From an uncultured bacterium (GTDB taxonomy: Bacteria; GCA-001730085), in the NCBI GenBank assembly GCA_964565945.1, contig CAZMGY010000013.1, forward strand, positions 1 through 9,869: a stretch of 9,869 nt of DNA, in the 5' to 3' direction. The number at the start of each line of letters is the position of its first letter. Within the stretch, counting starts at the first letter, position 1. A program made the translations under genes and the position numbers. The notes under the pieces were generated by a model. The model searched no databases and was not told the origin of the DNA. It saw only the letters and a program-made list of their open reading frames with translations. Positions 1 through 9,869 of the stretch are shown piece after piece.

Positions 1-545
1 GCCAAGGATCAAGAGTATCAACGTTTGCAAGAGTCGTATGAAGAGCATCTGAAAAATCGGAAAGCTATGGAGCAAACAGCTAAGCGTTTGCAGGAAGAGA
101 TGCAAAGCCAAGATGAAAAATTTGTAGCTCAAAGGCAGGCATACACAAAGTTGCAACAGTTGCATGAGACTAAGCTTAAAGAACAGCATGGTTTAGAGCA
201 GAATTTGGAATATTTAGAGAAAAAATTACAGTCTCAGCAACGTGAACTTATGGCTAAGGATCAAGAGTATCAACGTTTGCAAGAGTCGTATGAAGAGCAT
301 CTGAAAAATCGGAAAGCTATGGAGCAAACAGCTAAGCGTTTGCAGGAAGAGATGCAAAGCCAAGATGAAAAATTTGTAGCTCAAAGACAGGCATACACAA
401 AGTTGCAACAGTTGCATGAGACTAAGCTTAAAGAACAGCGTGGTTTAGAGCAGAATTTGGAGTATTTAGAGAAAAAATTACAGTCTCAGCAACGTGAACT
501 TACGGCTAAGGATCAAGAGTATCAACGTTTGCAACAGTCGTATGA
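1..545 (+). repeat. In-frame 252-nt (84-aa) tandem repeat inside the coiled-coil CDS: two full copies plus ~41 nt of a third, running off the left edge
   Basis: Copy starts are at 1, 253 and 505 (GCyAAGGATCAAGAGTATCAACGTTTGCAA). Copies 1 and 2 differ at about five positions by hand comparison (e.g. CAT/CGT giving H->R, GAA/GAG, ATG/ACG giving M->T). Copy 3 diverges after ~545 (TCGTATGA|TGATGAATG versus TCGTATGA|AGAGCATCT). Confidence 0.95.
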
Positions 546-3500
546 TGATGAATGTAAAAAACGTCGCGGGGTTCATCAAAACTATGAGCGTTTAGAAAAA
601 GAGTTGACTCAGGTGCAAAAAGAGAACGATCATTTAGAAGATGATCTAGAGGCCAGTCAACAGGATGTCGATCAAGCGCGTAAGAAGTCTTTGAACCTAG
701 AAAAGGTTGCTAGGGATATGCTCAAAGTGCTGCGCCAATTGGAAAGCGAGTTTAGTCATCTTAAGAACCACCTGAAACAGAAAGATGAGATTTTGGTTGG
801 CTCTCAAAATCAGCTAACGAAACAAGATAAGCAGCTCGGTGCATATCGCAAGAATGTTGGAGAGTTGGAAGCCAAGCTGAAAGAGTTGGATTATCAGGCA
901 AGAGAGTTTAAAGTTGAGAAGGACACCCTTGAGGAGCAATATCAGCAAATCAAACGTCGTTCGCAGCGACAGGTAGAACAAAGCACTAAAGCCACGAAGC
1001 ACATAGAGGCTTTGGTGATGCGGTTGAAGTTGCAAGAGAATGATTTGAAAACGTCTCAAAAGGTGATCCAGGATTTGCAGGAGAAACTTAAGGCTCAAGT
1101 GGATGCATTGACGGCGAAAGAACAAGAACTGGCTAAGAGCAAAGAGAAGGTAGAGCAGGTGACGCGCCAATCCTTAGTGGAAATCGAAAGCTTAATCAAT
1201 CACTTGGAAGACAATCGTCGTACTGCGGATAAGGCTAAACTTGAATGGAATGAGCAATTTAAAGTTGAGCAACAGCTTGTTCAAAAACAAAAAGAACAAC
1301 TTAATCAGCAAGCCTCTTTATTGCAACAATGGTCTCAAAGATACGAAAACCTTGCGGCCAAGCTTGGAGGTGTTGAGCAAGAGAATCAGCAGCGCTTGGC
1401 TGAGGTGCAAAATGAGGCGAAGGTAGCGAAGGTGCAATTTGATCACTTGAATCAAGAGTATCAATCTCTGGTCGTCGAATTTCAGAATATGTCTCAGGCA
1501 AGAGAAACAATCGAAGCTCAGATGCGTTCTGCTCAACAAAAAGCGCAAACAAAGGACCTTAAAAACAAAGAGTTGCGTGAGGCGCTTAACCACAGTAAAG
1601 ATAATGCGGTGCAGCAAAACCTGAAGCTCAAGGAACTTGTGCAAAGTAGAGCCGATATTAAAGCCAAAGCAGAGTCAGAAATTCAAAACTTGCAAGAAAA
1701 ACTGCAAAACACCCGTTTGGAAGCCAGTGAGTTATCTCAGGCTCTTAAATTGCTTAAGCAAAATAAATCACTGTTGGATCAGCGTGTTGCCAGAGCCGAA
1801 AAAACTGTATCCTTTCAAGAAAAAAAACTGGAGCGTCTGCATGAAGATCGTCGCAACTTAATTCATAAGGGAGATCAGTTGCTTAAGGATAAGCTAGGCT
1901 TGACCGATAAATTGAGCGCTTCAAAAGAGGAGCTGTTCAAAAAAGAGGGGCAATTGAAAGAAAAAAGTTACTTGCGTCAAAAGCTTCATGAAAAAATCGA
2001 TCGCCTTCATCAGGATTTAAAGGAATTGGCGCAAGCAAGGGACGCTTTGAAGTTCGAATTAAGCCAGGTGCAAAAAACTAAAAGAGAGGTTGAAGTAGTT
2101 CAAGGTCAGTTGGTTCAAAAAAGTAAATTTTTGGAGCAAGAAAAATCTACTCTTGATCAAGAACTTAAGTGCGTGATTGCCGAAAAAATAACAATTAAAC
2201 AAAGAAATAAGGAACTAAGGGGCAAATTGGAGGTTTTTGAGAAAAAAGTCCTTGAGAGAGATACAGCGTTGGCTAGAGCGCAAAAAGATAATGGTTTTGT
2301 TCAAGCATCCTTGCAAAAACTTCAAAATCAATGGAGTGTTTTGAATCAAAAATGGAATGGTCTGCAAGCATGCTACCAGACTGAGACGGAATTACACAAT
2401 AAACTTAAGTCGTTGCACAACGAAACACTGCAGGAGCAGGAAAAACTTGTTGCCGATCTTGATCAAACACGGTCTGAACGGGAGCAAAGTTTGGCCCAAC
2501 TGGACAAGATTAAAGATCATAACGCTCAGTCGAAAGACTATTATGAATCGGTGATTAACCGTTTGAGTGCTGATTTAAGCACTCAGGAAAAGGAAATGAA
2601 AGACTTGGCGGGTGTTCTCGACAAGGAACGTCAGCAAGCCCTGCTTGTTGATCAAAAACTCGAAGCCGCTTCGGCCGAGGTGAATCAGTTAAGAACACAG
2701 GTTATAGTTCAAAAAAATGCCGAAAAAACTTTGCAGAAATCTTTAAGTGATGTAAAAGCTGATTTGGGACAAAAAAAAGAAACGGCTCTTAAGTTGTCTG
2801 GAGAGGTGCAGCAAAGAGATCAAAATTTAGCTCAGCTCGAAAAACAGATTTTGGTGACTGAGCAACAGTTCGATAGTTTAAAGGATCAGTACAGTATGCG
2901 TCTCAAAGATATTGAGCAGCTAGAGGAGGAGTTGGGAAGCACTCAAAGCAATTTTGAAGGATTAAAATCTAAACAAGACCAAATAGAGCAACGCAGCTTA
3001 AGTTTTGAATCGAGCAATATGAAAGTTCAAGAGCAAAATGTGGTATACAAAAAACAAATTCGTCAGCTCGAGAAAGATAAAAAACAATTCGAAAACGAGA
3101 TACGTCAGTACATTCGCAAAATAGAAGATGATTTGCTCAAGATTCAGGAAGAAAACCTGAGTCTTAAGCAAGGCATGAAGGAACTTAAGAATAAGCATTT
3201 AGACTATATCGGTAAGGATGACCATGACCAACGGGTTAAAGAGATCAAAAAGCGGTTGCAGATGATGCAGTTTAAACTAACACGTAGCGAGGATATGCGT
3301 AAGTCGATTGAGGATAATCAGCAACAAGCCAAATCGAAGATTAGCCTTTTGCAAGATAAATTGGCCGACAAGACCAAACAGTACGATGAGCTGAACAATA
3401 AGCTTAAAAAGAAATTTAAAGAGTTTTCGAAGGCGCTTAAAAGCAAGCGTCGCAAAGGTCAAGATCAGGCAATTCTTTTATTGATCGAAGAGTCCGAACG

Positions 3501-3912
3501 GATAAAAGTCGATTATGAGCAAGGTTTAAAGTCTTTGCGGAATGATTTATCCCGCATTCAGAACGAAACAAAAGATAAGGAGCAATATTATTTTTCGTTG
3601 GAAAATCAGTTGAGTGAAACGCAAGAATGTGTGAAACAATTGATCGACGAGAAAAAAGTGTGGATCAAAAAGCGCGTTCAGGCATTGAGCAACAACGGGG
3701 GAAATCCCCAAGTTGTGTCTTTGGCTCGTTTGTTGGATAATATCAAAACAGGCACCGATGATCAAAAAGCAGAGGCCTTGGTGATGTTAGGAAATATTGG
3801 AGACAGTCGTGCGACGCACGAGGTACAATCCTTTTTGCAAGGTGATTCTTCTGGATGGCTCAAACAGTTAGCGAAAGAAGCTTTGGATCTTATTGAAAGG
3901 AAAGTGGCTTAA
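1..3912 (+). CDS. Giant coiled-coil protein, 5'-partial (1303 codons visible), with a C-terminal HEAT-like repeat
   Basis: Frame 1 is open from nt 1. Codons 1-24 (AKDQEYQR) contain no stop and match the sequence at 253-276, so the TTG at 25 used by the ORF track is not the real start and the gene continues upstream. Stop TAA is at 3910-3912. The translation is E/K/Q/L-rich with heptad-like character throughout. No Walker A (GxxxxGK[ST]) is visible. The last ~65 aa (about nt 3712-3909), LARLLDNIKTGTDDQKAEALVMLGNIGDSRATHEVQSFLQGDSSGWLKQLAKEALDLI, fit the HEAT / PBS-lyase HEAT-like pattern (..A..aLG.IGD..a...L...L.d......a..AL). Confidence 0.9.
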   Translation, partial: AKDQEYQRLQESYEEHLKNRKAMEQTAKRLQEEMQSQDEKFVAQRQAYTKLQQLHETKLKEQHGLEQNLEYLEKKLQSQQRELMAKDQEYQRLQESYEEHLKNRKAMEQTAKRLQEEMQSQDEKFVAQRQAYTKLQQLHETKLKEQRGLEQNLEYLEKKLQSQQRELTAKDQEYQRLQQSYDDECKKRRGVHQNYERLEKELTQVQKENDHLEDDLEASQQDVDQARKKSLNLEKVARDMLKVLRQLESEFSHLKNHLKQKDEILVGSQNQLTKQDKQLGAYRKNVGELEAKLKELDYQAREFKVEKDTLEEQYQQIKRRSQRQVEQSTKATKHIEALVMRLKLQENDLKTSQKVIQDLQEKLKAQVDALTAKEQELAKSKEKVEQVTRQSLVEIESLINHLEDNRRTADKAKLEWNEQFKVEQQLVQKQKEQLNQQASLLQQWSQRYENLAAKLGGVEQENQQRLAEVQNEAKVAKVQFDHLNQEYQSLVVEFQNMSQARETIEAQMRSAQQKAQTKDLKNKELREALNHSKDNAVQQNLKLKELVQSRADIKAKAESEIQNLQEKLQNTRLEASELSQALKLLKQNKSLLDQRVARAEKTVSFQEKKLERLHEDRRNLIHKGDQLLKDKLGLTDKLSASKEELFKKEGQLKEKSYLRQKLHEKIDRLHQDLKELAQARDALKFELSQVQKTKREVEVVQGQLVQKSKFLEQEKSTLDQELKCVIAEKITIKQRNKELRGKLEVFEKKVLERDTALARAQKDNGFVQASLQKLQNQWSVLNQKWNGLQACYQTETELHNKLKSLHNETLQEQEKLVADLDQTRSEREQSLAQLDKIKDHNAQSKDYYESVINRLSADLSTQEKEMKDLAGVLDKERQQALLVDQKLEAASAEVNQLRTQVIVQKNAEKTLQKSLSDVKADLGQKKETALKLSGEVQQRDQNLAQLEKQILVTEQQFDSLKDQYSMRLKDIEQLEEELGSTQSNFEGLKSKQDQIEQRSLSFESSNMKVQEQNVVYKKQIRQLEKDKKQFENEIRQYIRKIEDDLLKIQEENLSLKQGMKELKNKHLDYIGKDDHDQRVKEIKKRLQMMQFKLTRSEDMRKSIEDNQQQAKSKISLLQDKLADKTKQYDELNNKLKKKFKEFSKALKSKRRKGQDQAILLLIEESERIKVDYEQGLKSLRNDLSRIQNETKDKEQYYFSLENQLSETQECVKQLIDEKKVWIKKRVQALSNNGGNPQVVSLARLLDNIKTGTDDQKAEALVMLGNIGDSRATHEVQSFLQGDSSGWLKQLAKEALDLIERKVA

Positions 3913-5623: not shown

Positions 5624-6160
5624 ATGCGTAAGAAAAAACAAGTTACCAACGAATCCCGCATTTTAGACATTAATACGGATATGCAGGGGACTTTGACTTT
5701 TAAAGAGCCTATGCATTTAACCATTCAAGGCACGTTTGAGGGCTTTTTGGATACCAAAGGATATTTGGAAATTGGGAAAAAAGCACGTATAAAAGGCGAT
5801 ATTCAGGGTGAAGAAATTGTTGTGTCGGGTCATATTGAAGGCAACATTTTTGCCGACAAATTATTGAGAGTGACGGCCACGGGTTCTGTGAAAGGCGATT
5901 TGAACGTCAAAAGCCTTAATTTAGATTTAGGTGCTGTGTTTGAAGGTGTGTGTCGGATGAACAATCTGGAAAATTACGTCCCGGGGCCTGATCAGATGTC
6001 AATTGAAGATGTTGCTCAATACCTAAATGTGGATTCCCAAAAAGTCAAAAAATGGATCGAAGATGGATTATTACCGAGCGAAAATATTGATAATCATTAC
6101 ATTATTTGTCGTTCTGATGTGGATATTTGGGTGAACGATCAAAAAATGCGTATGAGCTAG
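5624..6160 (+). CDS. Bactofilin (polymer-forming cytoskeletal beta-helix) fused to a C-terminal excisionase/MerR-type helix-turn-helix
   Basis: I prefer ATG 5624 (MRKKKQ...), with GAGGAG at 5609-5614 nine nt upstream. The track's GTG 5603 is the longest alternative. The bactofilin-type repeat region (about nt 5663-5960) reads LTFKEPMHLTIQGTFEGFLDTKGYLEIGKKARIKGDIQGEEIVVSGHIEGNIFADKLLRVTATGSVKGDLNVKSLNLDLGAVFEGVCRM, including the typical terminal L.L..GA.FeG.c.M. The HTH_17-like tail (about nt 5996-6134) reads MSIEDVAQYLNVDSQKVKKWIEDGLLPSENIDNHYIICRSDVDIWV. Stop TAG is at 6158-6160. Confidence 0.8.
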   Translation: MRKKKQVTNESRILDINTDMQGTLTFKEPMHLTIQGTFEGFLDTKGYLEIGKKARIKGDIQGEEIVVSGHIEGNIFADKLLRVTATGSVKGDLNVKSLNLDLGAVFEGVCRMNNLENYVPGPDQMSIEDVAQYLNVDSQKVKKWIEDGLLPSENIDNHYIICRSDVDIWVNDQKMRMS

Positions 6161-6171
6161 GGGGGGGGGGG
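6160..6171 (+). repeat. G12 homopolymer bridging the bactofilin stop codon and the next gene's GTG start
   Basis: The sequence reads ...ATGAGCTA[GGGGGGGGGGGG]TGGAAACG. The first G is the last base of stop TAG (6158-6160). The last G is the first base of start GTG (6171-6173). It is the only long G run in an otherwise AT-rich window. Confidence 0.95.
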
Positions 6172-6478: not shown

Positions 6479-6506
6479 TTGAAAATTCATCCTTAGGGAT
6501 TATAAT
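6479..6506 (+). promoter_or_regulatory. Sigma70-like promoter candidate (TTGAAA - 16 nt - TATAAT)
   Basis: TTGAAA lies at 6479-6484, a 16-nt spacer at 6485-6500, and a perfect TATAAT at 6501-6506. The site sits in the AT-rich gap just after the 6464 stop, ~80 nt upstream of the signal-peptide ATG at 6587. This is a motif match only. Confidence 0.35.
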
Positions 6507-6586
6507 AGATAATAGTTATTATTAAATTTTTTTTGTTGAATTAAGTAATAATGAGGTAAAGAAATATGAAATAAGGAAAAGTATTT

Positions 6587-7100
6587 ATGAGGTTATGGGC
6601 AATGTTTTTAGTATTTGCTATAATCACAGTGGCGTCAAGAGAGGCATGGGCTCTGGCCATATCTACGAAATTGGGTGGTTTGGATCAAATGCTTGAAAGG
6701 TAAAGGGCAACGTCAGCTATCATCAACCCCCACTGAGGTAAATGCTTTGGACGCGGTGATGGAAATGTTGTCTGACACTGTTCCTCTAACACAAGAACTT
6801 CGTGAGAAAATTAAACAAGATATTAAGAAACTGCTTAGAGGTGAGACAGACTATCTTGCGCTGGCCTAGGGTTTTGCCAGGGTTAAAGCGGGTCTTTCCT
6901 ATATATCATTGGAGCAAACAGATAGTCCTGGAACATTTCACGTTTCAAGCTCAGAAAAAACCAGGGTTTTTTCTGAACAAATCACAAAGCTTCTAGGCTC
7001 CTACGTAGATGAGGCAGATTACGAGGCCTTTTTAAATTCCAAAAGATATCAAAAGAAAGTCGGTAGTTACTTAGCCTTAGATTTGAGGGGGAATTGGTAA
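6587..7100 (+). pseudogene. Decayed paralog of the secreted modular repeat protein encoded at 8179-9869
   Basis: The stretch 6587-6700 (frame 2) encodes MRLWAMFLVFAIITVASREAWALAISTKLGGLDQMLER. By hand count it is ~85% nt-identical to 8191-8294 (MRLWATFFLFAMITVVSTEAWSLAPSTKLWGLDQTLED), but it hits TAA at 6701-6703. Homology resumes in frame 3 as TPTEVNALDAVMEMLSDTVPLTQELREKIKQDIKKLLRGETDYLALA. This matches the module-A start of the intact gene (ANTLDAVMEMLSESVLLTQELREQIKQYMGSLVGADKDYLMAV). An in-frame TAG follows at 6867-6869, then GFARVKAGLS...DYEAFLNSKRYQKKVG (compare FAFARVKAGFS...YRAFLDANAKDQQQG), ending at TAA 7098-7100. Relative to the intact gene, ~65 nt after the signal peptide and the 60/61-nt coiled-coil insert are both missing. 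Confidence 0.7.
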
Positions 7101-7875
7101 TCCTAGAAGTTGCTAGTCGTGTTCAAGGATTTAAAGGTCAAGCTAATCCTTTTGATACTGGCGCTCGCGGTATAACTCAAAAAGAAGTTCAGTTTAGAGA
7201 AACGGATGCTGGTGAGCTTAAAACAGAAAGAGTTTATCTTAACTGATAAATCAGAAGATAGTCTGTTTGCGGGTGTTACTCGCTGGAGTGCCAAAAATCG
7301 TCGTTGGGTTAGAATTATTCGAGTTAAAAAGAGCTTTTCTTCGGAGTCTGTGTTTAAGTACACGGCTTTGTTTGAAGCTATCAAAGCTTCGATGATGAAA
7401 GAAGCGGAGGTTGCCTCAGAAGCAAAAATGCTTACCAAATATGGTTTAAGTTCTGAGGCTATTACGGCGGACACTCAAGAGTATATTATGGTTCTTGGAT
7501 GCTTCAATGCTAAAGTTCATGCTTTAGCATGGGCTAACATGAAGGTGCCCGACTTGTACGCTTTTGGTGGAAGGATTAACAGAGTACCAGGATTCTCTTG
7601 AGGAGCTTAAAGATCTAGGTTTAAAGATGCTGGCTGTTCCTAGTGATTCGGTAATAGCTTTGGGTGAGGCTATTAAGCAGGCTCAAGCTATTGGTAAGGA
7701 AGATCTTCAAAGACTTCTTCAGAAACTACTCTTATTGATTAATATGGCTCAAAACACGTTAGATGCTAAGATGAGAGGAGCGTCTTTCTCTGCTGTTATT
7801 GAGGGAACATGGGTCGTTAAAGGAGTAAGCTTAGCTCGGACGTTTGAATGGAACTCGACCTTATATAGTGCCTAA
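7067..7875 (+). pseudogene. Chain of three overlapping + strand reading frames (2 -> 3 -> 1) of unknown function: a frameshift-disrupted gene, or the C-terminal part of the decayed paralog
   Basis: Frame 2 is open 7067-7246 with no ATG (..LEVASRVQGFKGQANPFDTGARGITQKEVQFRETDAGELKTERVYLN*). Frame 3 is open 7176-7601 (track ORF 7206..7601). Frame 1 is open 7543-7875 (track ORF 7564..7875, TTG start). Each segment overlaps the next by 40-70 nt, all have protein-like composition, and the last ends 31 nt before a terminator hairpin. I recognised no homolog. Confidence 0.4.
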
Positions 7876-7905
7876 AAGCAATGGGCTACAGAATAAGTTT
7901 CTGAA

Positions 7906-7941
7906 AACCTCATGATGAAAACCATGGGGTTCTTCTTTTTT
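7906..7941 (+). terminator. Rho-independent terminator
   Basis: The stem AACCTCATG (7906-7914) pairs with CATGGGGTT (7923-7931): 9 bp including one G-U pair. The loop is 8 nt (ATGAAAAC). It is followed by CTTCTTTTTT (7932-7941), 31 nt downstream of the TAA at 7873-7875. Confidence 0.65.
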
Positions 7942-8083
7942 ATATTACTATTTCATTTTGCGGATGTTACTTTCTGGAGGGGCCAAAAAGGGGGATTGAT
8001 CTCTATGAACCTTCTATTTTTGTGTTAAGCCTTGTGTTGAGCATAAGCTTTGAAAATCATTATTATGCTATTTAAAAAAAAAT

Positions 8084-8112
8084 TTGATAAATATCGAATG
8101 AGAGATCATAAT
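8084..8112 (+). promoter_or_regulatory. Sigma70-like promoter candidate (TTGATA - 17 nt - CATAAT)
   Basis: TTGATA lies at 8084-8089, a 17-nt spacer at 8090-8106, and CATAAT at 8107-8112. The site is ~65 nt upstream of the proposed ATG at 8179, after an A9 tract. This is a motif match only. Confidence 0.3.
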
Positions 8113-8178
8113 AACTGGCAGTTAGAATTGAATTATGTTTGTTGCGCAAATAATAATAGGGTGAGGAGATGGGAGATA

Positions 8179-9869
8179 ATGAAAAATACTATGAGGTTAT
8201 GGGCAACGTTTTTCTTATTTGCTATGATCACAGTTGTGTCAACAGAGGCATGGTCTTTGGCCCCATCTACGAAATTGTGGGGTTTGGATCAGACGCTTGA
8301 AGATATGGTCGATTGGGGTGAGCAATTGAAGCCACAAGGTATTCTTCAAGCTACGCCACAGCAGCTTAAAGGGGAACAGCAGTTATCACTAGCAGAACAG
8401 CCTGGTTTAGAGCAGAATTTGGAGTATTTAGAGAAAAAATTACAGTCTCAGCAACGTGAACTTCCCACTGCTGAGGCAAACACTTTGGACGCGATGATGG
8501 AAATGTTGTCTGAAAGTATTCCTCTAACACAAGAACTTCGTGATCAAATTGAACAATACATGGGGAGCCTAGTTGGAGCTGAAAAAGACTATCTTATGGC
8601 GCTTTTTGCTTTTGCCAGGGTTAAAGCAGGTTTTTCCGATATAAAATTGCAGCTAACAAGTGCTGGAACAGTTGAAGCTTCAATATCAGAAGAAAGTAAG
8701 TCTCTTTATCAACAAGTCCTACGGGCTCTACTCAGCGGCTTGGGAAATGGTGAGCTCGAAACCTTTTATGATCGTTACAGGGCCTTTTTAGATGCCAACG
8801 CAAAAGATCAGCAGCAAGGCACGATGTCAATTTTGGAGCAAGAGAGTGTCTCAGATGAACAGACACCTCCAACTGAGGTAAATACTTTGGAGCAAGAGAC
8901 TGTCTCAGATGAACAATTATCCCTCATGGTGGCAAACACTTTGGAGCAAGAGACTGTCTCAGATGAACAGACACCTCCCACTGAGGTAAATACTTTGGAG
9001 CAAGAGACTGTCTCAGATGAACAGACACCCCGCGCTGAGGAAAAAATTTGGGAAGAGGCGGTGGAAGGGTTGATTGCAACTACTAAAGTGAAAAAAAGAC
9101 TTCGTGGTCAAATTACAAAAGAGCTTGAGAGCCTGGTTGGATCCGAGAAAGATACGCTTGCGGCGGTCTATGCTGTGGTCATGGCTAAAGCTGGTCTTTC
9201 CGATCAAAAATTGAATCGAACAGATAGTGATAAAACAGTTGAAGTTTCAAGCAAAAGTACCAAGTTGCGTTGTAATCAAATGGCAAAGGCTCTAGAGCCC
9301 TACATAACCGATTTGCGTTACAAGGCCTTTTTAGAAATCAACCAAGAAGATCAGCAGCAAGGTGCGATATCAACTTTGGAGCAAGAGACTGTATCAGATA
9401 AACAATTACCCCTTATGGTGGCAAACACTTTGGACGCGGTGATGGAAATGTTGTCTGAAAGTGTTCTTCTAACACAAGAACTTCGTGAGCAAATTAAACA
9501 ATATATGGGGAGCCTGGTTGGCGCTGACAAAGACTATCTTATGGCGGTCTTTGCTTTTGCTGGGGTTAAAGCAGGTTTTTTTGATAAAAAACTGCAGCTA
9601 ACAAGTGGTGGAACAGTTGAAGTTTCAACATCAGAAGAAAGTAAGTCTCTTTATCAAAAAATTGTAAAGACTTTACTCCGGGGTCTTGAAGAAACTGTCG
9701 CTGACGTCTTTACTGAGCGTTATATGGCCTTTTTAGAGATCAACCAAGAAGATCAGCAACAAGGCGCGACGTCAACTTTGGAGCAAGAGACTGTCTCAGA
9801 TGAACAGACACCCCGCGCTGAGGAAAAAACTTGGGAAGAGGTGGTGGAAGGATTGTCTGTAAGTCCTGA
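8179..9869 (+). CDS. Secreted modular repeat protein, 3'-partial (563 codons, no stop before the window end); absent from the supplied ORF track
   Basis: I translated frame 1 codon by codon from 8179 to 9867 and found no stop. The final bases are CCT GA, so the terminal TGA is out of frame. Start ATG 8179 has GAGGAG at 8163-8168; ATG 8191 is an alternative. The signal peptide is MKNTMRLWATFFLFAMITVVSTEAWSLA|PS. The body is A-type modules (ANTLDAxMEMLSES..LTQELRxQIxQYMGSLVGAxKDYLMAxFAFAxVKAGF.D.KLQLTS.GTVE.S.SEESKSLYQ...FL....DQQQG). These alternate with a diverged B-type module (EEKIWEEAVEGL...VKKRLRGQITKELESLVGSEKDTLAAVYAVVMAKAGLSDQKLNRTDSDKTVEVSSKSTKL...YKAFLEINQEDQQQG). The modules are joined by TLEQETVSDEQ linkers. 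Confidence 0.85.
   Translation, partial: MKNTMRLWATFFLFAMITVVSTEAWSLAPSTKLWGLDQTLEDMVDWGEQLKPQGILQATPQQLKGEQQLSLAEQPGLEQNLEYLEKKLQSQQRELPTAEANTLDAMMEMLSESIPLTQELRDQIEQYMGSLVGAEKDYLMALFAFARVKAGFSDIKLQLTSAGTVEASISEESKSLYQQVLRALLSGLGNGELETFYDRYRAFLDANAKDQQQGTMSILEQESVSDEQTPPTEVNTLEQETVSDEQLSLMVANTLEQETVSDEQTPPTEVNTLEQETVSDEQTPRAEEKIWEEAVEGLIATTKVKKRLRGQITKELESLVGSEKDTLAAVYAVVMAKAGLSDQKLNRTDSDKTVEVSSKSTKLRCNQMAKALEPYITDLRYKAFLEINQEDQQQGAISTLEQETVSDKQLPLMVANTLDAVMEMLSESVLLTQELREQIKQYMGSLVGADKDYLMAVFAFAGVKAGFFDKKLQLTSGGTVEVSTSEESKSLYQKIVKTLLRGLEETVADVFTERYMAFLEINQEDQQQGATSTLEQETVSDEQTPRAEEKTWEEVVEGLSVSP
8403..8463 (+). repeat. 61-nt segment identical to nt 441-501 of the coiled-coil gene's tandem repeat (dispersed repeat, in frame in both genes)
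   Basis: TGGTTTAGAGCAGAATTTGGAGTATTTAGAGAAAAAATTACAGTCTCAGCAACGTGAACTT occurs at both 441-501 and 8403-8463, read by eye with no mismatch. It encodes GLEQNLEYLEKKLQSQQREL in both genes. It matches the copy-2 variant (GGAGTAT) and not copy 1 (GGAATAT at ~207). Confidence 0.9.
8476..9869 (+). repeat. Higher-order module repeat: A-type module at 8476-8829 and 9421-9774 (offset 945 nt); a 783-nt A+B super-unit (9001-9783) restarts at 9784
   Basis: GCAAACACTTTGGACGCG occurs at 8476 and 9421. CAAGAGACTGTCTCAGATGAACAGACACCCCGCGCTGAGGAAAAA occurs at 9001 and 9784 (783 nt = 261 codons). The offset 945 equals 783 + 3x54, so it is explained by the three extra linker copies. The repeat is still running at the window edge. 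Confidence 0.85.
8830..9045 (+). repeat. 54-nt (18-aa) in-frame tandem repeat x4 (acidic linker ..NTLEQETVSDEQ..)
   Basis: TTGGAGCAAGAG starts at 8833, 8887, 8941 and 8995, exactly 54 nt apart. The conserved core is TTGGAGCAAGAGACTGTCTCAGATGAACA. The variable 3' third reads ACACCTCCAACTGAGGTAAAT, TTATCCCTCATGGTGGCAAAC, ACACCTCCCACTGAGGTAAAT and ACACCCCGCGCTGAGGAAAAA. Single dispersed copies lie at ~9375 and ~9778. Confidence 0.9.

Follow-up and report, generated by a model that had tools for sequence, protein, structure and literature searches.

A 60-nt in-frame segment of a coiled-coil repeat inserted into a secreted repeat gene of an uncultured bacterium: a probable microhomology-primed templated insertion

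The stretch of DNA analysed here (the window) is an entire 9869-nucleotide (nt) NCBI draft contig (CAZMGY010000013.1) from an uncultured bacterium. Its last gene, which encodes a putatively secreted repeat protein (8179-9869, plus strand), contains a segment of 60 nt, or 20 codons (8404-8463, plus strand), that is identical to part of a tandemly repeated unit (442-501, plus strand) in an unrelated gene for a long coiled-coil protein (1-3912, plus strand). The segment interrupts a motif that the secreted gene carries intact elsewhere, and it is missing from a decayed paralog nearby. We consider it probable that it arose in a single, one-off, non-reciprocal copy-and-paste event, in which 60 nt of the coiled-coil repeat were placed in the N-terminal linker of the secreted gene as the scar of microhomology-primed repair.

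Shared Segment and Insertion Site

Positions 441-501 and 8403-8463 agree at 61 of 61 nt, with no further matching base on either side. The codon phase of the segment is the same in donor and recipient, and its product is GLEQNLEYLEKKLQSQQREL in each; an exact in-frame match had been reported in the first-pass annotation, made from the sequence alone, and was confirmed. Base T8403 can be assigned to either parent, so that the identity spans 61 nt and the insert proper 60 nt (GGT...CTT). Permitting one mismatch (G440 vs C8402) extends the match to 70 nt (432-501 vs 8394-8463), and the repeat finder recovered a 70-nt family of three members (180-249, 432-501, and 8394-8463) in which the junction base is different each time (A188, G440, and C8402, respectively). 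Comparison of nt 1-3912 with nt 6500-9869 yielded 82 shared 14-mers, all inside the 61-nt segment, which is therefore the sole stretch of at least 14 nt common to both gene regions. An identity of 61 nt within 9.9 kb cannot have arisen by chance, and diverged, older copies of the segment were not found elsewhere in the window.

The donor gene encodes a protein of >1295 amino acids (aa), the N-terminus of which lies beyond the contig. A 252-nt tandem array (2.2 copies, 98% identical) occupies positions 1-545 on the plus strand; the contig begins within this array, and the visible copies are thus a minimum, with further copies off the contig. Tandem copies 1 and 2 differ at five of 252 bases (~2%), and three of the five differences (188/440, 210/462, and 251/503) lie in or adjoin the 70-nt shared segment. 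The transferred segment constitutes the last 60 nt of the repeated unit: the copy at 442-501 forms the end of tandem copy 2, and the same segment in tandem copy 1 (190-249, plus strand) is one base off the transplant (A210 vs G, the single difference between 189-249 and 8403-8463). An initial claim that the transplant matches copy 2 and not copy 1 holds insofar as copy 2 is exact, but the preference amounts to one nucleotide in an array that is cut by the contig start. Because the segment is integral to the tandem 252-nt unit but interrupts a motif in the secreted gene, we infer that it was transferred from the coiled-coil gene to the secreted gene, in keeping with the donor role first proposed for the coiled-coil repeat.

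The recipient N-terminal site reads GCA GAA CAG CCT, then the 60 nt, then CCC ACT GCT GAG GCA AAC; the insert thus separates CCT from CCC in a motif native to the recipient, GAACAG(ACA)CCT followed by CCCACTGAGG. The native linker motif, GAT GAA CAG ACA CCT CCC ACT GAG GTA AAT (DEQTPPTEVN), occurs at 8854 and 8962, and variants of it are present at 8908, 9016, 9397, and 9799. The uninterrupted target motif, ACACCTCCCACTGAGG, in which CCT and CCC are contiguous, is found at 8971-8986, with a second copy at 8863-8878 (plus strand), inside a 54-nt linker array (8832-9051; 4.1 copies, 82% identical) that encodes TLEQETVSDEQTPPTEVN-type linkers; a TPPTEVN variant alternates with a LSLMVAN variant in the units of this array. 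Excising 8404-8463 leaves AEQPPTAEANTLDAMM (GAA CAG CCT/CCC ACT GCT GAG, AEQPPTAEAN), which aligns with the gene's own DEQTPPTEVNTLEQ. The insert thus comprises exactly 20 codons, placed between the CCT and CCC codons of the native motif, and its excision restores that motif.

A further empty site is provided by the decayed paralog of the recipient (6587-7875, plus strand), which contains in-frame stops and a frameshift. The paralog is continuous across the site (...TCAACCCCCACTGAGG, 6721-6738) and reads CATCAACCCCCACTGAGG there, with the segment absent. The clean in-frame insertion of ~60 nt into the intact gene that had been proposed at the outset, including the lack of the segment in the paralog, was upheld on both counts, with exact limits of 8404-8463. 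Another ~66 nt of the intact gene (DMVDWGEQLKPQGILQATPQQL, ~8300-8365) are also missing from the decayed paralog, and no source for this extra stretch was found in the window; indels between the paralogs are thus not confined to the 60-nt transplant.

The signal-peptide regions of the two paralogs are 87% identical, i.e., 13% different, which is close to the ~15% divergence first estimated. With 0 differences in 61 nt, the divergence of the transplant from its donor is bounded at <4.9% (95%). The event is younger than the paralog duplication (13%), and the initial description of it as very recent stands to that extent; the data do not show it to postdate the tandem duplication, the bound of <4.9% being indistinguishable from the 2% between the tandem copies.

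Junctions and Proposed Mechanism

At the left junction (8394-8403, plus strand), recipient AGAACAGCCT matches donor AGAACAGCGT (432-441) at 9 of 10 bases, as eight contiguous matches, a mismatch, and T. Sampling of 2 million random pairs of positions, one in each gene, gave P=1.2e-4 for homeology of this quality, or P=2.9e-4 with codon phase held. The mismatch, C8402, falls on the second position of the CCT (Pro) codon native to the recipient, as would be expected if the recipient strand had served as the primer, with copied bases starting after T8403. At the right junction (8464-8473, plus strand), native CCCACTGCTG resumes, and it matches the donor continuation ACGGCTAAGG at only 4 of 10 bases, which is chance level; the donor end and the recipient pre-site sequence also match at 4 of 10 bases, again chance level, and flank comparisons revealed no second-junction microhomology beyond the 1-nt T ambiguity. 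The flanks had been called unrelated in the first-pass annotation; this is accurate for the right flank, whereas alignment of the junctions uncovered clear microhomology on the left.

Neither inverted repeats nor a palindrome were detected in the segment or its surroundings; apart from 1-2 nt of ambiguity there is no target-site duplication, and the segment with its flanks showed no excess folding relative to shuffles (z=-0.67). The window contains no tRNAs or Rfam families, and an RNA element or hairpin was rejected on the combination of no Rfam match, no tRNA, and no excess folding. The guanine-cytosine (GC) content is uniform throughout the window (39-42%) and the GC skew is positive throughout; together with the co-orientation of donor and recipient, this gives no sign of foreign origin.

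Among the routes suggested at first reading, microhomology-mediated templated repair gives the best fit to the junctions (P ~1e-4 on the left, none on the right), and gene conversion and an unrecognised shuffling mechanism were not sustained. RecA-type ectopic gene conversion was rejected, as it needs tens of bp of homology on both sides, and the site offers 10 nt on the left, none on the right, and no other shared 14-mer. Under templated insertion, the recipient top strand would have been broken, or a 3' end freed, directly after ...AGAACAGCCT. The freed 3' end would have annealed to the donor bottom strand at the near-identical AGAACAGCGT via the eight contiguous matches, and would have primed the synthesis of 60 nt on that strand; the extended end would then have been released and joined to the other end (CCCACTG...) without homology, in a blunt or near-blunt manner. 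Reports on microhomology sampling by RecA/Rad51 also place the minimal length for recognition at eight contiguous bases. Template and insert are 7962 nt apart, with the recipient downstream of the donor on the same strand. Break repair and fork template switching are both compatible with this footprint, which cannot distinguish between them. The use of an mRNA template is unlikely, given that the priming strand supported by the homeology would need an antisense template.

In both genes the left homeology, including AGAACAGC, codes for Glu-Gln and is read in one and the same phase, so that the frame of the copied sequence would have been inherited automatically. Only the insert length would then have needed to be a multiple of three, a 1-in-3 chance that could be filtered by selection. 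The added 20 residues are heptad-patterned and probably helical, and the insert was probably tolerated rather than selected for. The recipient N-terminus was modelled by AlphaFold2 in single-sequence mode with a predicted local distance difference test (pLDDT) score of only 38, too low for the model to be of use.

Several points weigh against this interpretation. All ten retrieved contigs of the Logan assemblies stop at or before nt 6774, short of the junctions, and the NCBI contig starts and ends inside repeats, indicating an assembly that was clearly challenged by repeats. Textbook templated insertions are mostly <25 bp and derive from sequence adjoining the break (PMC12426944), as opposed to 60 nt from 8 kb away. 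The boundary is ambiguous, in that the extra sequence relative to the paralog could be 69 nt (GAACAGCCT...CTT); the homeology would then itself have been transferred, and one later substitution would be implied. Similarly, an unseen tandem copy reading CAGCCTGG, if one exists, would remove the primer-mismatch argument and place the boundary at 70 nt or more. There is no return microhomology at the right junction, and the mechanism is drawn from one junction pair and a single event.

Alternative Explanations

The alternative that survives best, which we regard as possible but unlikely, is the same event with other boundaries: a tract of 69-70 nt (GAACAGCGT...CTT, 23 codons) would have moved through illegitimate recombination or a short ectopic conversion, with CCT produced afterwards by a G-to-C change. 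The left "microhomology" would in that case merely be part of the transferred tract. When LSS-TPTEVN of the paralog is set against LSLA(EQP+20 aa)PTAEAN of the intact gene, the extra sequence can indeed be counted as 23 codons, and the junction base is evidently a variable site, as it differs in all three copies; a pre-insertion allele reading CTAGCACCCACTG would fit the longer tract, and one reading GCAGAACAGCCTCCCACTG would not. However, GAACAG and then CCT CCC is the recurring motif of the recipient itself (8854 and 8962), which makes the import of EQP unnecessary, and the longer tract requires that one substitution in 70 nt fell exactly at the edge of perfect identity and recreated the native codon.

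Somewhat less probable again is an artefact, in which mis-assembly or chimeric amplification molecules placed the segment in the secreted gene. The contig is a 9869-nt draft with both ends in repeats, no independent contig among those retrieved covers 8403-8463, and the ORFs (open reading frames) of the neighbouring decayed paralog are on record from this contig alone. Against this, a graph path from the left flank in the secreted gene through the 61-mer to the right flank in the secreted gene would need junction k-mers in the reads on both sides, and a repeat mis-join would be expected to fuse the secreted gene to a coiled-coil flank instead. Moreover, the insert is exactly 20 codons long, is in the donor frame, and lies between two codons of the native motif. 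The rest of the contig is matched by nine Logan assemblies at 100% identity and by a tenth (L001) at 99.97% (two mismatches in 6298 nt), and the Logan contigs end, at 505 and 6774, at break points of a k=31 graph of the window sequence. These matches support the contig in general, and none of them extends to the insertion site.

The first-pass annotation had concluded that short coding cassettes move between unrelated genes at this locus; this was not borne out, as a single event was observed. No second segment shared by donor and recipient was present in the window in the 14-mer comparison, and in L011, the only related locus long enough, no 16-mer of the coiled-coil gene recurs in the secreted repeat genes downstream of it. 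There is only a slim chance that in this lineage short in-frame segments from unrelated, highly repetitive genes are used again and again to patch fast-evolving secreted repeat genes, guided by ~8 nt of in-phase homeology. If this were so, recurrent patching would be an unrecognised source of protein novelty, a form of microhomology-guided, exon-like shuffling in bacteria, and additional paralogs, of which the shattered Logan assemblies give a hint (see below), would bear further donor-derived patches.

Two kinds of dedicated element appear very improbable, and to a similar degree. One is a small mobile coding element resembling a miniature inverted-repeat transposable element (MITE), a Rickettsia palindromic element (RPE), or a PARCEL repeat, with both the coiled-coil repeat and the secreted gene as in-frame hosts. 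In-frame insertion of short repeats is known from RPEs and PARCEL repeats, but the segment has no terminal inverted repeats, no palindrome, and no target-site duplication beyond 1-2 nt; two of its three copies in the window are accounted for by the 252-nt tandem duplication, and genome, metagenome, and viral collections, which do not include the rest of the source genome, gave no match to its core 36-mer. The other is a system devoted to diversification, which would graft donor segments into secreted genes time after time; it could be a diversity-generating retroelement (DGR), a programme of segmental gene conversion, or a cassette shuffler of a new type. The recipient, as a fast-evolving, signal-peptide-bearing repeat ORFan beside a decayed paralog, is the kind of gene that would suit such a system, the differences between copy 1 and the transplant both fall at copy-1 adenines, and the repeat genes at this locus in L011 are also highly dynamic. 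However, there is one shared segment in the window and none in L011, the remaining differences between the tandem copies are not adenine-specific, and no reverse transcriptase or recombinase is encoded among the window ORFs; furthermore, donor and recipient are not related here, which sets them apart from pilS, vls, and MgPa cassettes. A DGR in particular, considered because of the adenine positions, was rejected: 2 of 26 adenines of the segment differ from copy 1, there are 0 differences within 61 nt from copy 2, and the window ORFs contain no reverse-transcriptase domain.

Shared ancestry, or convergence on the same 20-residue coiled-coil motif, could draw on the richness of both regions in E, Q, L, and K, but is already refuted by 100% nucleotide identity that includes all synonymous sites (vs 87% between the true paralogs), by the absence of the segment from all other units and from the paralog, and by the lack of diverged copies in the window.

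On present evidence, the probable templated insertion is an example of a known mutation type in an uncharacterised bacterial lineage, and a new system is not indicated. If the junctions hold in reads, it would be an unusually legible bacterial case in which a templated insertion is long (60 nt) and its donor distant, with donor, empty site, priming homeology, and frame consequence all visible within one 10-kb contig. It would illustrate how an in-phase match of 8-10 nt between low-complexity, E/Q-rich coding regions can allow a ready-made helical segment to be added to an unrelated protein with the frame kept, and hence one concrete route to mosaic proteins. The interest of the locus would climb sharply only with further donor-derived patches in the gene family.

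Recipient Gene, Gene Cluster, and Relatives

The recipient gene begins with a signal-peptide-like N-terminus (assigned by eye), followed by three repeat units of ~115 aa linked by TLEQETVSDEQ..., and has no stop before the contig end; as the contig ends within the repeats, the gene is incomplete and the repeat count is a minimum. A promoter-like site is predicted upstream of it at 8084-8112. A word-indexed search of 5.8 billion clusters gave no homolog of the recipient protein, and an exhaustive search of 1.84 billion representatives returned nothing beyond a 58-aa fragment, which is the recipient's pseudogene copy; on these sequence searches, the recipient counts as an ORFan. When 20 candidate products, among them predicted truncated junction products, were looked up in the clusters by exact match, only three pseudogene ORFs were recovered, from the NCBI contig alone. 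These ORFs of the decayed paralog (P0003, P0004, and P0009) are recorded solely from this contig, and the neighbouring genes are on 9-24 contigs. Assemblies built with k=31 probably shatter at 6587-7875, which hints at more paralogs of the family elsewhere in the genome.

Downstream of the coiled-coil gene, for the product of which protein searches found no homolog, are genes for a SPOR-domain protein, a TPR-PDZ protein, a bactofilin-HTH (helix-turn-helix) fusion, and a small HTH protein. A homopolymer of 12 G (6160-6171) covers both the stop codon (TAG) of the bactofilin-HTH gene and the start codon (GTG) of the gene for the 97-aa HTH protein, and three Logan contigs from other samples terminate in or at this tract (6162, 6169, and 6171). 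This suggests length heterogeneity or a drop in coverage, and the tract is a candidate for slippage.

Sampling of the lineage is poor: for the PDZ neighbour, just three relatives were found (66, 60, and 52% identity), and GTDB representative genomes yielded nothing. The core 36-mer of the segment was absent from genome, metagenome, and viral collections, which do not contain the rest of the source genome, and a conserved 29-mer of the secreted gene was absent from metagenomes. The gene cluster is syntenic in the relatives L011-L014; the loci of the PDZ relatives keep the coiled-coil/SPOR/PDZ synteny, and neither the motif nor the secreted gene is present in them. In L011, the PDZ protein of which is 60% identical, the coiled-coil ortholog has a different repeat unit of 84 nt in at least 21 copies. 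Within L011 1-4177, the 84-nt array (~21 copies) abuts an inverted array of ~28 copies near nt 2388, which is probably a fold-back artefact of this 1.86x long-read contig. Downstream of the PDZ gene of L011 (8246-12751), signal-peptide repeat proteins with a 357-nt unit in four tandem copies (98% identical) replace the bactofilin-HTH protein; the 84-nt and 357-nt arrays together indicate that both gene types are very dynamic in the lineage. Homology between the secreted repeat of the window and the L011 secreted repeats was considered and rejected (BLASTP E=0.31; hhalign probability 0.3%).

Comparison With Known Systems

In Neisseria (pilE/pilS), Borrelia (vlsE), and Mycoplasma (MgPa), expressed genes are converted from homologous silent cassettes, with homology on both flanks and recurrence at high frequency. 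The insertion described here resembles these systems as a non-reciprocal copy of a short coding sequence into a gene for an exported protein with the frame kept, but the donor is an unrelated functional gene, the homeology is 10 nt on one side, and the event is single. Rickettsia palindromic elements and PARCEL repeats are palindromic, multi-copy sequences that lie in frame within protein genes. They share with the 60-nt segment the placement of a short in-frame sequence inside an otherwise unrelated protein gene, with a peptide added to the product; the segment, unlike them, is non-palindromic, and in the 9.9-kb window it exists only as the array copies plus one, i.e., three copies of which two are from the tandem array.

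Microhomology-primed templated insertions are an established repair signature, usually <25 bp and copied from flanking sequence (PMC12426944), and in E. coli, end joining of the polymerase-theta type is carried out by bacterial reverse transcriptases and endogenous enzymes with microhomologies of 8-12 nt (bioRxiv 10.1101/2022.03.14.484287). Polymerase-theta-type end joining, together with its bacterial analogue (the group-II-intron-like reverse transcriptase G2L4 and endogenous alternative end joining), is like the present case in that the junction insert is identical to sequence elsewhere with the donor left intact (60/60 to 442-501), and in that priming at a short, one-sided microhomology is followed by re-joining (PMC12426944; bioRxiv 10.1101/2022.03.14.484287). 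The known inserts differ in being typically <25 bp, with the template within tens of bases of the break, compared with 60 nt and a template 7962 nt away. A further difference from templated insertions is that the second junction here lacks microhomology re-annealing.

Fork stalling and template switching (FoSTeS) and microhomology-mediated break-induced replication (MMBIR) are models that have been described mainly for large human rearrangements. The return junction of the present insertion, being without microhomology, departs from these models. The outline is otherwise similar, in that a 3' end detaches from the strand being copied, pairs through microhomology or microhomeology with a remote template, copies a stretch of it, and returns, and the co-orientation of donor and recipient on the same replichore is in line with such a switch.

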